64,000 nucleotides of DNA from an uncultured Anaerolineales bacterium (GTDB lineage: Bacteria; Chloroflexota; Anaerolineae; Epilineales; Epilineaceae): contig CAZJWJ010000006.1 of assembly GCA_964549495.1 (NCBI GenBank), positions 22,274 through 86,273 of the forward strand, written 5' to 3'. This document shows positions 37,501-40,941 of the stretch, in pieces. Both the position numbers and the translations under genes were made by a program. Below the pieces are notes generated by a model. That model saw nothing but the letters and a program-made list of their open reading frames with translations. It was not told the origin of the DNA and did no database searches. Each line of letters begins with the position of its first letter. Position 1 is the first letter of the stretch.

Positions 37501-39306
37501 CTAACCCTCGTCTTCCTCCGAGCCCTCGTCGCTCTCGTCCTCGTCGCCGCTCTCTTCGGACTCGTCGGTGTCGCCGTCGTCGCCGGTCTCATCGGATGCA
37601 TCCGCCGCGTCGGCGTCCTCCACATCCTCCGCGTCCCCCGACTCTTCGACCATCCCCGGAGCGTCCTCGGTCTGGTCGCCGTATCGCTCCTCCATCGCCT
37701 CGCGGATGCGCGCGGCCTGGTCCTCGGCGCCCTCCTCGAACCAGGCGTGCTCGGGGCGGGCCAGGATCTCCTCGATGACCGCATCCACCGAGTCGGCCTC
37801 GGCTTCCAGGCCGGCCTCGCGGCTTTCCTCGAGGATCTCCCGGGCCATGGGGATCAGCTCCATGTAGAAGCGCTCGGCCACCTCGTACATGCCGTGCCAG
37901 TGGGTGTAGTCCGGGGCCATCATCGAGGCGCCGTGGCGGGCGCGCCGGCCCTCGTGGTGCCAGAGGTAGAACCAGGTCCACTCGATCTCCTCGTCGAAGT
38001 CGGTGGGTGTGCGCAGCTGGGCGTCCTTCAGCGCGTTCATGATGGCCAGGCCCGGCTTGGCGAACTTCTCATTGTAGAGGATCACCAGGTCGTCGTACTG
38101 GGTGTAGAAGCTGTTGACGTAGTCCGGCGTGTGGCAATGCGAGCAGACGTCCTTCATGCGCTGGCGCTTGTCGGCGGCCGAGTCGACCACCAGCGCGCGG
38201 CGCAGCTCGGGATCCGTCTCGCTGACGATGGCGTGGTTCTCGTCGGTGTCCATCACCGCGCTGACCGGCGGGCGGTTGGTCCAGCTGATGCGCTCGCCCG
38301 GGTCGTGGGTCACCTTGCCGTCGTTGCGGCTGTGGCCGGACATGTGGCAGGTGGCGCAGGTGGGCGCGGCGGCGTAGTCCTCGCCCAGCACCCACTCGTC
38401 CGCGTCCAGGTTCATGTCGTCCTTCAGGTCGCGGTAGGCCACGCCGTGCTTGGACTCCTCGTAGATCTCCTTTTGCGGATGATCCGGACCCAGGTGGCAT
38501 TTGCCGCAGTTCTCGGGCTGGCGGGCGCGCCGGGGCGAGAAGTCGTGGCGGCTGTGGCAGGCCGAGCAGGAGCCGCGCGAGCCGTCCAAATTCAGCCGGC
38601 CGATGCCGGTGTTGGGCCAGGTGCCGGCGTGGAAGATGGGCCGGCCATCCCGGTCATCCCGCGCGATCTGCGCCAGCACCGCCACGTTGGTCGGCTGCCC
38701 GCTCTCGTCCGGAGCCAGATCGTCGACCGTGATCATCTCGCCATCCACCGACTGCAAAGCCACCTTCGAGCCATGGCATTGCTGGCAGCCCGAGAAGGCG
38801 CTGGCCGTGCCGTTGACCATGTCGACCTCTTTACCCGGCGTCGGCGAATGCGGGTTGAAGGGCGCCCGCGCGCCCTCGACCGTCTCGGCCAGGTAGTTGT
38901 CCAGCGAGGCCAGGATGTTGCCGCCGGCCGCGTGATGGCTGGCCTCGAACTCGGCCGCCTCGGTCTCATGGCAGCGCGAACAGTCCTTCGGGGTGACGAT
39001 GGTCGCGATCTGCGCGCCCTCGTGCCAAAAGCCGTCGGCATCGCCCTCGGCCGCCTGATGGCAGTCGACGCAGGCCACGCCCGACTCGGCATGCGGGCTG
39101 CCCTCCCAATGCTCGATGATGCCCGGATTCTCCTCGAGGTGGCAGTCGACGCAATCCGCCGAGGCCTCGGGCACCGCCACGGCGGCCTGGCTGAGGCCCA
39201 CCTCGGCGCGCTTGCGCGCCGTCTCCATGTACTGCACCAGGATCAGGGAGAGCAGGAAGAGGCCCGACAGGGCGGCGATGATCCAGCGCTTGGCATCCAG
39301 CGACAT
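37501..39306 (-). CDS. Membrane-anchored HAO-family octahaem cytochrome c with polyacidic C-terminal tail
   Basis: One N-terminal TM helix ([19 protein letters not shown]). Eight CxxCH motifs (CVDCH, CVDCH, CSRCH, CQQCH, CSACH, CGKCH, CATCH, CSHCH). HAO-like context [33 protein letters not shown]. The last ~48 aa are almost entirely D/E/S/G. GAGGGAG SD. Confidence 0.85.
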   Translation of the reverse strand: [601 protein letters not shown]

Positions 39307-39337
39307 GCTCTTGTCTCCCTCGATCTCGAATTGCGGA

Positions 39338-40390
39338 TTAATGCTCGACCAGCGCTTCCCAGACCGTCAGGGCCACGATGGCCACGACGCCCAGGATGCC
39401 GATCCAGGTACTGGCTTCCTCGAGGCGCGTCCAACGCCGGATGGCCGCGTCGATGAAGGGCCAGGTGAACATCACGAAGACCACCAGGCCCATGCTCAGG
39501 ACCGCGGCCGTGCCGGAAAAGAGCTTGAGCCAGCGGAAGGCGACGTAGAAGAACCACTCCGGCTTGATGACCTCCGGCGTGACCAGCGGGTTGGCCGGCT
39601 CGCCCAAGAGGGCCGGGAAGATGGTGGCCAGCGCGCTGAGCAGGATCATCAGCACCAGGCCGATGATCAGCTCCGTGTAGAGGTGGTCCGGGAAGAAGTC
39701 GAAGGTCCTCTCCCGCTCCTCCTCCGTCTCGCTTTCGAAATGCAGGTCGGTGACGCCCTGCAAGCGGATGATGGCGATGTGCACCACCACCAGGGCCGCG
39801 ATGGTCACCGGCAGCACCGCCGCGTGCAGCACGTAGAAGCGCGACAGGGTGAGCTGGTTGTAGCTATCGCCGGCCAAGAGCATGCGCTTGGCCATTCCGC
39901 CGACCACCGGCACCGTGTCGGCGATGTTGGCGCCCACCGTCGCGCCCCAGAAGCTCAGCTGCTCGTAGACCAGGCTGTAGCCGGTGAAGCCGGTCATCAG
40001 GGTGGCGATGAGCAGGCACATGCCCACCATCCAGTTGATCTCGCGCGGCTTGCGGTAAGCGCCGGTGAAGTAGACCCGCATCTGGTGCAGGATGACCGCC
40101 GCGATCATCAAGGTGGCGGCCCATTTGTGCACGCTGCGGATGTACCAACCGAAGCTGGCCTCTTCGGTGATGTAGCGCACCGACTCGTAGGCCGTCTCCG
40201 GCGCCGGCTGGTAGTAGAAGGCCAAGAGGATGCCGGTGACGATCTGGACCACGAAGAGGTAGGCCGGCGTGCCGCCCAGCGCGAACCACCAGCGCTCGAG
40301 GTGATGCGGCACCGGCTCGTTGGTCAGCGTGCGCAGATCCTCGCCGGAGACCGGCAGTCGCTGGCCGAACCAGTCGCGCAGCAGCGTCAC
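39338..40390 (-). CDS. Cytochrome b (b6 + subunit IV fused) of a Rieske/cyt b complex
   Basis: Haem-ligand His pairs SVHKWAATLMIAAVILH (14 apart) and VLHAAVLPVTIAALVVVH (15 apart, b6-like). Qo motif PEWFFY. The GTG start overlaps the Rieske stop (GTGA) with a GGAGG SD. The track start at 40981 is rejected. Confidence 0.85.
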   Translation of the reverse strand: MTLLRDWFGQRLPVSGEDLRTLTNEPVPHHLERWWFALGGTPAYLFVVQIVTGILLAFYYQPAPETAYESVRYITEEASFGWYIRSVHKWAATLMIAAVILHQMRVYFTGAYRKPREINWMVGMCLLIATLMTGFTGYSLVYEQLSFWGATVGANIADTVPVVGGMAKRMLLAGDSYNQLTLSRFYVLHAAVLPVTIAALVVVHIAIIRLQGVTDLHFESETEEERERTFDFFPDHLYTELIIGLVLMILLSALATIFPALLGEPANPLVTPEVIKPEWFFYVAFRWLKLFSGTAAVLSMGLVVFVMFTWPFIDAAIRRWTRLEEASTWIGILGVVAIVALTVWEALVEH

Positions 40391-40941
40391 GAGCGTCGAC
40401 CTCCGCGCTCGGCCGAGGAGTCTTCGGCCAGACGCTCGGTGGGCACCTGGATGTAGAGCAGGCCCGAGCGGAGTTCCAGCGGATAGCGCGGCAGCGACTG
40501 GCCGGCCTCGGCCGGCGGCCCTTCGGTGGCCACGCCCGAGGGGTCGAATACCCCGTTGTGACAGGGGCAGAAGAAGCGATCGTTCTGGGCCTGCCAATGC
40601 ACCTGGCAACCCAGATGCGGACAGACGCTGGAGAGCGCCACGAAGTCCTCCACGCCGCCGGCCTCGCCCTGGCGGGCGATGTTGATCGTCTCGCCGTTGG
40701 GCGCGCGGTACATCATCGCCGCGCCCGGCGCCAGCTCGTCGGCGCGGGCCAGGAACATCCACTGCCGCGCCGGATCGCCCGCCGGGTAGAGGTAGCGCAT
40801 CGCCAGGCGCGCGAAGTTGCCGTAGCCGGCCACCAGCCCCAGGCCCATCGCCACTCCGGACAGCCGGGCCAGAAAGCCGCGCCGGCTGCTGCCCGCGCCC
40901 GGGTCGGACGGGGCGGAAGAAGGCTTGTCGCTCGGGTCCAT
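40387..40941 (-). CDS. Rieske [2Fe-2S] subunit with Tat signal
   Basis: Twin-arginine motif SRRGFLARL. Cluster boxes CPHLGC and CPCHNG. ATG at 40941 is preceded by GAGGAGG; alternative ATG at 40977. Confidence 0.9.
   Translation of the reverse strand: MDPSDKPSSAPSDPGAGSSRRGFLARLSGVAMGLGLVAGYGNFARLAMRYLYPAGDPARQWMFLARADELAPGAAMMYRAPNGETINIARQGEAGGVEDFVALSSVCPHLGCQVHWQAQNDRFFCPCHNGVFDPSGVATEGPPAEAGQSLPRYPLELRSGLLYIQVPTERLAEDSSAERGGRRS

Follow-up and report, generated by a model that had tools for sequence, protein, structure and literature searches.

Rieske/cytochrome b operons that include an octahaem cytochrome c of the hydroxylamine oxidoreductase (HAO) family have been described in several bacteria. 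In Kuenenia stuttgartiensis, the R/b-3 operon (kuste4569-4574) encodes the HAO-like protein Kuste4574, for which reduction of nitrite to nitric oxide (NO) has been proposed, an activity that is unproven there (PMC12485887). In Caldithrix abyssi, the genes for a Rieske/cytochrome b pair (Cabys_2558/2557) and for an epsilon-Hao (Cabys_2556) are located beside nap, and it has been proposed that quinol oxidation by the Rieske/cytochrome b proteins feeds both the octahaem protein and Nap (PMC5317091). Here we analyze a cassette of three genes, encoding a Rieske protein, a cytochrome b and an octahaem cytochrome c, in a 64,000-nucleotide stretch of contig CAZJWJ010000006.1 from an uncultured Anaerolineales bacterium (hereafter, the window). 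We hypothesize, with a probability of roughly 55%, that the products of this cassette form one membrane complex, a respiratory quinol:nitrite oxidoreductase in which the octahaem cytochrome is the catalytic reductase. A reductive HAO attached to a Rieske/cytochrome b unit is a known idea, and the clade described here is a distinct and very widespread version of it. The initial annotation, made from the DNA sequence alone, had pointed to clusters of this kind in anammox planctomycetes; they are indeed known from these organisms but, as the Caldithrix locus demonstrates, not only from them.

Like R/b-3, the window cassette combines Rieske and cytochrome b genes with an HAO-family octahaem protein that lacks the cross-linking tyrosine of the family. 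It differs from R/b-3, which encodes further subunits, in consisting of three genes only, in the presence of an N-terminal membrane anchor on the octahaem protein itself, and in its hosts, which are non-anammox bacteria from many phyla. The Caldithrix locus, as described, resembles the loci analyzed below in that a Rieske protein, cytochrome b, a tyrosine-less octahaem protein, NapA and a tetrahaem cytochrome are encoded together; however, nap comes first in Caldithrix, where NapGH is also present, whereas the order in the relatives of the window cassette is Rieske-cytochrome b-octahaem-NapA-tetrahaem, and the window itself contains no nap, the cassette being adjacent to nos instead.

Tyrosine-less 'hao' genes are abundant outside nitrifiers in metagenomes, where they have been tentatively interpreted as epsilon-Hao-like reductases (PMC8940962). 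Our literature search, the scope of which excluded most subscription journals, yielded no reports on the present clade, its three-gene form, its breadth or its tie to napA, and neither the paper on eNOR nor that on denitrification in Chloroflexi mentions HAO or Rieske proteins.

Gene structure of the cassette and family of the octahaem protein

The three genes form a single minus-strand operon that is divergent from a clade II nos cluster (Table 1). The Rieske gene starts with an ATG at 40941, 6 nt after a GGAGG sequence, and ends with a TGA at 40387, which is overlapped by the GTG start of the cytochrome b gene at 40393; the ATG of the octahaem gene (39306), with GGGAG upstream, follows 31 nt past the cytochrome b TAA. 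Each of the three starts has a Shine-Dalgarno sequence of its own. A sigma-70-like match ahead of the Rieske gene is the sole one in the 36700-41200 region (0.4 in shuffled sequences) and is a consensus match only. No intrinsic terminator-like site was found 3' of the octahaem gene.

Table 1. Cassette genes, aligned catalytic positions of the octahaem protein and features of the surrounding island (window coordinates; residue numbers for aligned positions)
Feature	Location	Strand	Basis
Rieske 2Fe-2S protein, 184 aa, Tat signal	40387..40941	-	PF00355 and motifs
Cytochrome b, b6 and subunit IV fusion, 351 aa	39338..40393	-	PF00033, PF13631, PF00032
Octahaem cytochrome c, 601 aa, IhOCC-like, membrane-anchored, acidic C-terminal tail	37501..39306	-	PF13447, fold
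Counterpart of NeHAO D267/H268, distal Asp-His pair over haem 4	octahaem D275/H276		MAFFT alignment
Counterpart of NeHAO Y334, active-site Tyr	octahaem R345		MAFFT alignment
Counterpart of NeHAO Y467, P460 cross-link	octahaem W470		MAFFT alignment
Sigma-70-like promoter match before Rieske gene	40980..41007	-	TTGACA-16-AACAAT, 10/12 positions
Perfect palindrome TTGCGCTAGCGCAA in the region separating the Rieske operon from the divergent nos operon	41040..41053	.	TTGCG-N4-CGCAA, a single exact occurrence in the window against 0.06 expected
DUF1858 redox-disulfide domain and SCO1/SenC fusion, first gene of nos cluster	41119..42162	+	PF02630 114.5 bits; TIGR03980 48.6 bits
NosZ, Sec-dependent (clade II)	42164..44329	+	TIGR04246 837 bits vs cut-off 625
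NosD, NosF-like ABC ATPase, NosY-like permease, monohaem c-type cytochrome	45038..49412 (bounding open reading frames, starts unrefined)	+	PF05048 153 bits; PF00005, PF12679, PF00034
CuA subunit II	49734..50312	+	CuA motif CNEYCGTGHHLM
NOR-like haem-copper oxidase subunit I	50306..52018	+	PF00115 200.7 bits
Crp/FNR-family regulator, candidate regulator of the island	33965..34933 (start unrefined)	+	PF00027 72.1 bits, PF13545 69.5 bits

The Rieske protein (42.9 bits against a cut-off of 20.3 in a Pfam profile search) has a Tat motif, SRRGFLARL, and the two 2Fe-2S boxes of the CxHxGC and CxCH type (CPHLGC and CPCHNG). Box II reads CPCHNGVF and lacks the Ser and Tyr that are present in, and raise the potential of, the bc1 Rieske proteins, which suggests a low-potential Rieske protein of the menaquinol type. 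The cytochrome b is recognized by PF00033 (182.8 bits), PF13631 (160.4 bits) and PF00032 (39.5 bits) and, given that PF00033 and PF00032 match within one chain, is a b6/subunit IV fusion. Its His pairs are spaced by 14 and 15 residues, the Qo motif is KPEWFFY (PEWF, of the PEWY type), and the protein scores below the cut-off of every NCBIfam equivalog, the nearest ones being ExtP and b6. The position of the b6 haem ci Cys, which we take to lie in an FCLGG context, is occupied by Ala (WWFALGG). Thus, the cassette resembles b6f/bc1 complexes in the Rieske and cytochrome b pair, the b6-type His spacing and a subunit IV part with a PEWY-like motif, but differs from them in the fusion of b6 with subunit IV, the missing haem ci Cys, the sequence of box II and in that the operon encodes neither cytochrome f nor cytochrome c1, the third gene being that for the octahaem protein. 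The open reading frames (ORFs), Pfam matches and motifs bear out the initial annotation in its description of three co-directional minus-strand genes, a Tat-exported Rieske protein, a fused cytochrome b with GTG overlap and PEWFFY motif, and a 601-aa octahaem protein, with its own Shine-Dalgarno sequence, one helix and eight CxxCH motifs, in the cytochrome c1/f slot.

The octahaem protein has a single hydrophobic helix, at its N-terminus, and precisely eight CxxCH motifs, which begin at C52, C79, C109, C174, C247, C267, C317 and C388. It belongs to PF13447, 'multi-haem cytochrome' (75.8 bits vs a gathering score of 21.9), and its best sequence matches in PDB are IhOCC of Ignicoccus hospitalis (4qo5, 4e-39), HAOr of Kuenenia (6h5l, 1e-19) and Nitrosomonas HAO (NeHAO; 1fgj, 2e-16), followed by HDH and HOX, with NrfA marginal; a profile search also places the HAO family on top. 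The AlphaFold2 model, built on 85 diverse homologues (pLDDT 89, pTM 0.82), has three long C-terminal helices, and a Foldseek comparison of this model with PDB retrieves the same enzymes, IhOCC, HAOr, NeHAO, HOX and HDH, with 4qo5 as the best match (E 1e-20) followed by 6h5l, 1fgj, 4n4j and 6hif, all at a probability of 1.00 and with target TM-scores of 0.49-0.67. In the same comparison, NrfA and ONR appear only at E > 0.009, and no small electron-transfer or relay cytochrome scored. Hence, by sequence and predicted fold, this is a member of the HAO family whose closest solved relative is IhOCC, then HAOr. The family assignment made initially is upheld, and the grouping with electron-transfer multihaem proteins that would have spoken against it was not observed, the fold matches being HAO enzymes.

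IhOCC is likewise a membrane-associated octahaem protein of the HAO fold without P460, and both proteins carry, between their fourth and fifth haem motifs, a long insertion that contains the sequence WPNxGIGRxNxDG; they are ~24% identical over the structural alignment and differ at the distal pair, which is Asp-Val in the archaeal protein and Asp-His in the window octahaem. No statement linking IhOCC to a Rieske/cytochrome b operon was found in its description (PMC4429474). HAOr (kustc0457/0458), also a tyrosine-less HAO, shares the distal Asp-His pair but is a more distant match (19% identity in the fold alignment) and, unlike the window octahaem, is a soluble heteromeric complex that is not encoded with Rieske/cytochrome b. 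Kuste4574 of R/b-3 is described as a close homologue of kustc0458 and is set apart by this description from the window octahaem, which scores far better against IhOCC than against kustc0458, the protein with which the comparison was made.

The catalytic residues were located in a MAFFT L-INS-i alignment of 33 sequences (NeHAO, 31 family members and a KsHOX fragment), with numbering set by a NeHAO reference identical to 4FAS chain A (D267, H268, Y334 and Y467, the latter in GGWTYTEGW); in KsHOX, the cross-linking Tyr is part of the sequence QTYGNG. Given that HMMER and hhalign left the C-terminal region of the octahaem unaligned to NeHAO, the position of the cross-link Tyr was taken from MAFFT with bridging sequences. 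In 13 family members from different phyla, all four aligned positions (D275, H276, R345 and W470) show no variation. In this alignment, the octahaem keeps the catalytic pocket of the HAO family but not the P460 cross-link, and because Trp occupies the position of the cross-link Tyr, we read it as an enzyme of the reductive type. Five His residues outside the haem motifs (H72, H95, H254, H287 and H334) are common to the octahaem and NeHAO, and further candidate ligands are H125/H153 and H450/451/458, a count compatible with seven bis-His haems and one five-coordinate haem, ligation as such being beyond what a sequence can show. Together with the fold matches, the conserved Asp-His pair supports the initial proposal of a catalytic-type octahaem rather than a plain electron-transfer cytochrome, and the absence of the cross-link Tyr in the alignment points to reductive chemistry as in the cross-link-free Kuenenia HAOr, which reduces nitrite to NO and is unable to oxidize hydroxylamine (PMC8042395). 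IhOCC, too, lacks P460 and has been described as a nitrite reductase of the octahaem type (PMC9250108).

A separate feature of the window protein is its C-terminal tail (residues ~545-601, window 37501-37670), a 55-residue stretch rich in Asp and Glu that is predicted to be disordered (pLDDT ~40). Such a tail is present, in another form, in the nearest relative (P0002) and is lacking in the other 11 aligned members.

Distribution of the cassette and its neighbours in related loci

The distribution of the cassette was surveyed with one genome per species, and synteny was read in 80 sampled related loci. Relatives of the octahaem protein at 66-85% identity are present in at least 584 species genomes, with carriers among Anaerolineales, Gemmatimonadota, several orders of Acidobacteriota, non-anammox Planctomycetota, Binatia, Krumholzibacteriota and Myxococcota; the nearest relative among the matches listed comes from an Anaerolineales metagenome-assembled genome (MAG; 85% identity). 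The protein database contains thousands of homologues (~73-87% identity) from Acidobacteria, Anaerolineae/Ardenticatenia and Gemmatimonadetes which, where annotated at all, are labelled 'hydroxylamine oxidoreductase' or 'multiheme c-type cytochrome'. In a library of representatives at 50% identity, the tight octahaem family is a single cluster, beyond which lie 1,900 more distant relatives.

The cytochrome b gene is located directly upstream of the octahaem gene in all 80 loci, its product being 54-85% identical to the window copy, and a Rieske gene precedes it in each of the 72 loci where this could be assessed, the eight loci without a readable Rieske gene being truncated by contig ends or, in one case (L003), interrupted by a 100-N gap. 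Even a relative with an octahaem of only 49% identity has cytochrome b upstream. The synteny to which the initial annotation had tied its reading is therefore kept in every assessable locus, and the conserved unit consists of these three genes only. Across phyla, the identity of the three proteins ranges from 46 to 85%. Values of roughly 70-85% for all three are far above the expectation for vertical descent, which indicates that the cassette has moved horizontally between phyla as a unit, and this spread fits an accessory role in respiration better than that of a core complex III.

In 36 loci, about half of those with enough downstream sequence, the octahaem gene is followed by a co-directional napA at a distance of 4-313 nt; the three copies tested were identified as NapA by NF010055 (944-977 bits vs a cut-off of 904). 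In 16 of these 36 loci, NapA is followed by a tetrahaem ORF of 195-294 aa, the sole examined copy of which (L002, example at 11662-14594) shows weak similarity to NapB. Clustering of the neighbours gave no other recurrent families beyond regulators, porin-like and stress proteins, specifically NarL-type two-component systems, sigma-54 activators, a porin-like protein, and USP and CBS proteins (no search was aimed at NapC/NapGH), so that Rieske/cytochrome b would have to be the quinol dehydrogenase in the napA loci, which would be Nap systems driven by a Rieske/cytochrome b quinol oxidase. Three apparent downstream 'families' without a Pfam match turned out to be napA read in a wrong frame, an artefact of the GC-rich DNA, and were discarded. 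Six related loci encode a haem-copper oxidase, together with its subunit II, near the cassette. In an Ardenticatenia MAG, the three-gene cassette stands alone among housekeeping genes, which implies that the octahaem can be a terminal enzyme.

A more distant arrangement is found in L081-L083 (relatives of P0127), where a 51%-identical octahaem is encoded without Rieske/cytochrome b beside NapD-NapA, together with a TPR protein, a monohaem cytochrome c and flavocytochrome c sulfide dehydrogenase, a combination that hints at sulfide-linked nitrate/nitrite reduction.

The nos and putative nitric oxide reductase island

The window is GC-rich (about 0.65-0.73), and, as initially annotated, the cassette is divergent from a clade II nos operon, confirmed by the TIGR04246 match of NosZ. 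The first gene of the nos cluster joins a 'hybrid-cluster-protein-associated redox disulfide' domain (DUF1858) to the copper chaperone SCO1/SenC, a combination that is unusual for a factor in NosZ/CuA maturation. Between nosZ and nosD, an ORF at 44199-45107 runs over the end of nosZ in a different reading frame and has a coding-like G+C content at third codon positions (0.87); it has no Pfam or NCBIfam match and could be either a NosB-like membrane protein or a frame shadow.

The cluster closes with a CuA subunit II and a haem-copper oxidase subunit I that scores 81.9 bits against CtaD (cut-off 670) and in which helix VI reads GHGAQQ, so that the cross-link Tyr of the oxygen reductases, which is required for O2 reduction in haem-copper oxidases, is missing. 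This agrees with the logic by which families of CuA-containing nitric oxide reductases (NOR) related to B-type oxidases have been defined (PMC11214002), and the oxidase is probably a member of a CuA-type NOR family (eNOR/sNOR/bNOR-like); the earlier 'NOR-like' label thus holds. A Pfam scan of the ~40 larger ORFs of the window detected no NirS or NirK domains (cytochrome cd1, multicopper nitrite reductase), in line with what had been noted before.

The Crp/FNR-family regulator encoded at 33965-34933 is below the cut-offs of the FixK, FNR and NtcA models. The palindrome TTGCGCTAGCGCAA in the intergenic region resembles the consensus of a Crp/FNR-family (NnrR/DNR-like) box and is a possible box only. 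None of the 80 related loci has it upstream of the cassette, so that the nos promoter is more likely than the cassette to be its target, and we accordingly dropped it as evidence for NO regulation of the operon.

Several other genes of the window are worth recording. Two paralogous membrane methyltransferases of the ICMT/PEMT family are encoded at 26806-27411 and 36770-37366, one of them in the same orientation as the octahaem gene and 134 nt downstream of it, although no related locus has such a gene next to the cassette. There are four large von Willebrand factor A-domain proteins (23650-25728, 32755-33885, 34997-36763 and 59650-63237) and large FG-GAP/ASPIC repeat proteins (52529-56110). 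A stretch at 3907-6051 with a G+C content of 0.575, against ~0.70, contains a 714-aa ORF without a Pfam match and may be a foreign insertion.

Candidate functions of the cassette

We infer that the three proteins act as one complex in which the Rieske protein and the b6-type cytochrome b would oxidize (mena)quinol on the outer side of the membrane and conserve energy through a Q-cycle, an established property of the bc1/b6f superfamily. One electron would be recycled via the b haems and the other would pass from the Rieske cluster to the membrane-anchored octahaem, which would take the place of cytochrome c1/f and, given that it lacks the oxidation-tuning Tyr cross-link and keeps the distal Asp-His pair, would use haem 4 to reduce a nitrogen oxide. 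Nitrite would be the most probable substrate, since NapA makes nitrite beside the cassette in half of the relatives, both characterized tyrosine-less relatives reduce nitrite, and the stand-alone cassettes need a terminal acceptor; the product may be either NO or ammonium/hydroxylamine. In about half of the relatives, the outer haems might also feed NapA via the NapB-like tetrahaem cytochrome, and in this genome the monohaem cytochrome c encoded in the nos cluster could plausibly carry electrons from them to NosZ and the CuA-type NOR. The cassette as a whole would be an accessory module spread horizontally across phyla.

Several observations weigh against this proposal. The invariant Tyr467 of the octahaem is located only three residues before W470, and the assignment of the cross-link position comes from a sequence alignment of a loop that is poorly conserved between subfamilies. 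The closest characterized relatives differ in their products, IhOCC and epsilon-Hao being treated as ammonium-forming and HAOr as NO-forming, and no biochemical or expression work on this octahaem clade was found in the literature. A nirS or nirK gene may be present elsewhere in the genome. Furthermore, nosZ is within 10 kb of the cassette in only one of the 80 related loci, and the three neighbouring oxidases that could be read (L014, L073 and L077) have GHPLTY with the cross-link Tyr, i.e., are oxygen reductases. The nos/NOR neighbourhood is accordingly particular to this window and is not conserved in relatives; a general link of the cassette to NOR was rejected, and the tie to NosZ and NOR that had been suggested from the window alone is not supported as a general feature.

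Within the quinol:nitrite oxidoreductase proposal, the probability is split roughly evenly between NO and ammonium as the product. Under the ammonium-forming option, the octahaem would be a nitrite/hydroxylamine reductase of the type acting in dissimilatory nitrate reduction to ammonium, like epsilon-Hao and IhOCC, with NOR and NosZ merely scavenging NO and N2O. We consider this a tentative assignment; it is a sub-case of the quinol:nitrite oxidoreductase proposal, claiming somewhat less than half of its probability rather than adding to it. It is favoured by the closer kinship to IhOCC, the closest solved relative, by the adjacency of the 51%-identical relative to NapD-NapA, and by His276 and Arg345, which in our view recall the Arg/His pocket of NrfA. 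The combination of nap, Rieske/cytochrome b and epsilon-Hao in the ammonifier Caldithrix abyssi has been interpreted in the same way (PMC5317091). However, IhOCC has Val at the distal position where the octahaem, HAOr and NeHAO all have His, so that the pocket appears closer to those of the NO-handling enzymes, and the Asp-His pocket shared with HAOr favours NO as the product. Also at odds with ammonium formation and in favour of NO is the location of the operon, which shares an intergenic region with nos and an island with a NOR-like oxidase but not with nirS or nirK. NO formation would make the cassette a third class, and a widespread one, of respiratory nitrite reductases that form NO, wired to its own proton-motive Rieske/cytochrome b quinol oxidase, an assignment that we regard as equally tentative; such an octahaem would be an analogue, not a member, of NirS/NirK.

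Alternatively, the octahaem might not be catalytic at all but could serve as the c-type subunit of an alternative complex III that replaces cytochrome c1/f and NapC and relays electrons to NapA/NapB-like proteins, NosZ, NOR or terminal oxidases. The presence of NapA and the tetrahaem cytochrome directly downstream in about half of the loci, the failure of neighbour clustering to reveal another recurrent family, such as a separate quinol dehydrogenase, and the B-family oxygen reductases within 10 kb of the cassette in several loci are all compatible with a relay, as is the nos cluster of the window, in which no NosGH-type quinol dehydrogenase was detected among the scanned ORFs. Hein, Witt and Simon are said to have shown in 2017 that N2O respiration in Wolinella requires a Rieske/cytochrome bc complex, which also counts for this possibility. 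Nevertheless, a relay would explain neither the invariance of the distal Asp-His pair and Arg345 nor the predicted fold, which is that of the enzymes of the family rather than of relay cytochromes, nor the stand-alone cassettes without a partner gene, and the ~70-85% identity across phyla fits a transferable accessory function better than a core complex III; we therefore consider a pure relay unlikely.

Oxidation of hydroxylamine (or hydrazine) by the octahaem, with electrons entering the membrane complex, is suggested by the annotation of several public records as 'hydroxylamine oxidoreductase' and by the invariant Tyr467 near the cross-link position. Yet the cross-link position itself aligns to Trp, and at residue 467, where the octahaem has Tyr, relatives of 45-50% identity variously have Tyr, Phe, Trp, Asp or Val, a variability that makes a cross-link role less likely. 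The HDH equivalog (NF052343, hydrazine_HDH) yields 62.5 bits against a cut-off of 900, and neither amo nor hzs is present in the window. In addition, a Rieske/cytochrome b complex is a quinol oxidase, and running it in reverse from hydroxylamine would be energetically unfavourable. An oxidative role thus appears highly improbable.

In surveys of the nitrogen cycle, nirS and nirK are counted for NO producers and nrfA (sometimes onr) for ammonifiers, and 'hao' matches outside nitrifiers are usually left unexplained (e.g., PMC8940962). A cassette that is found in at least 584 species genomes and, in roughly half of the loci sampled, is associated with NapA probably accounts for a real share of environmental nitrite turnover, and whether its product is NO or ammonium decides between loss and retention of nitrogen. 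If NO is formed, many Acidobacteriota, Gemmatimonadota, Chloroflexota and Planctomycetota that are recorded as nir-free or as incomplete denitrifiers would make NO from nitrite, and the organism studied here, with its octahaem, CuA-type NOR and clade II NosZ all encoded in one gene island, would run the pathway from nitrite to N2. The cassette would represent a compact case of an enzyme serving as the c-type subunit of a Rieske/cytochrome b complex, which makes the idea proposed for R/b-3 of anammox bacteria testable in ordinary heterotrophs.

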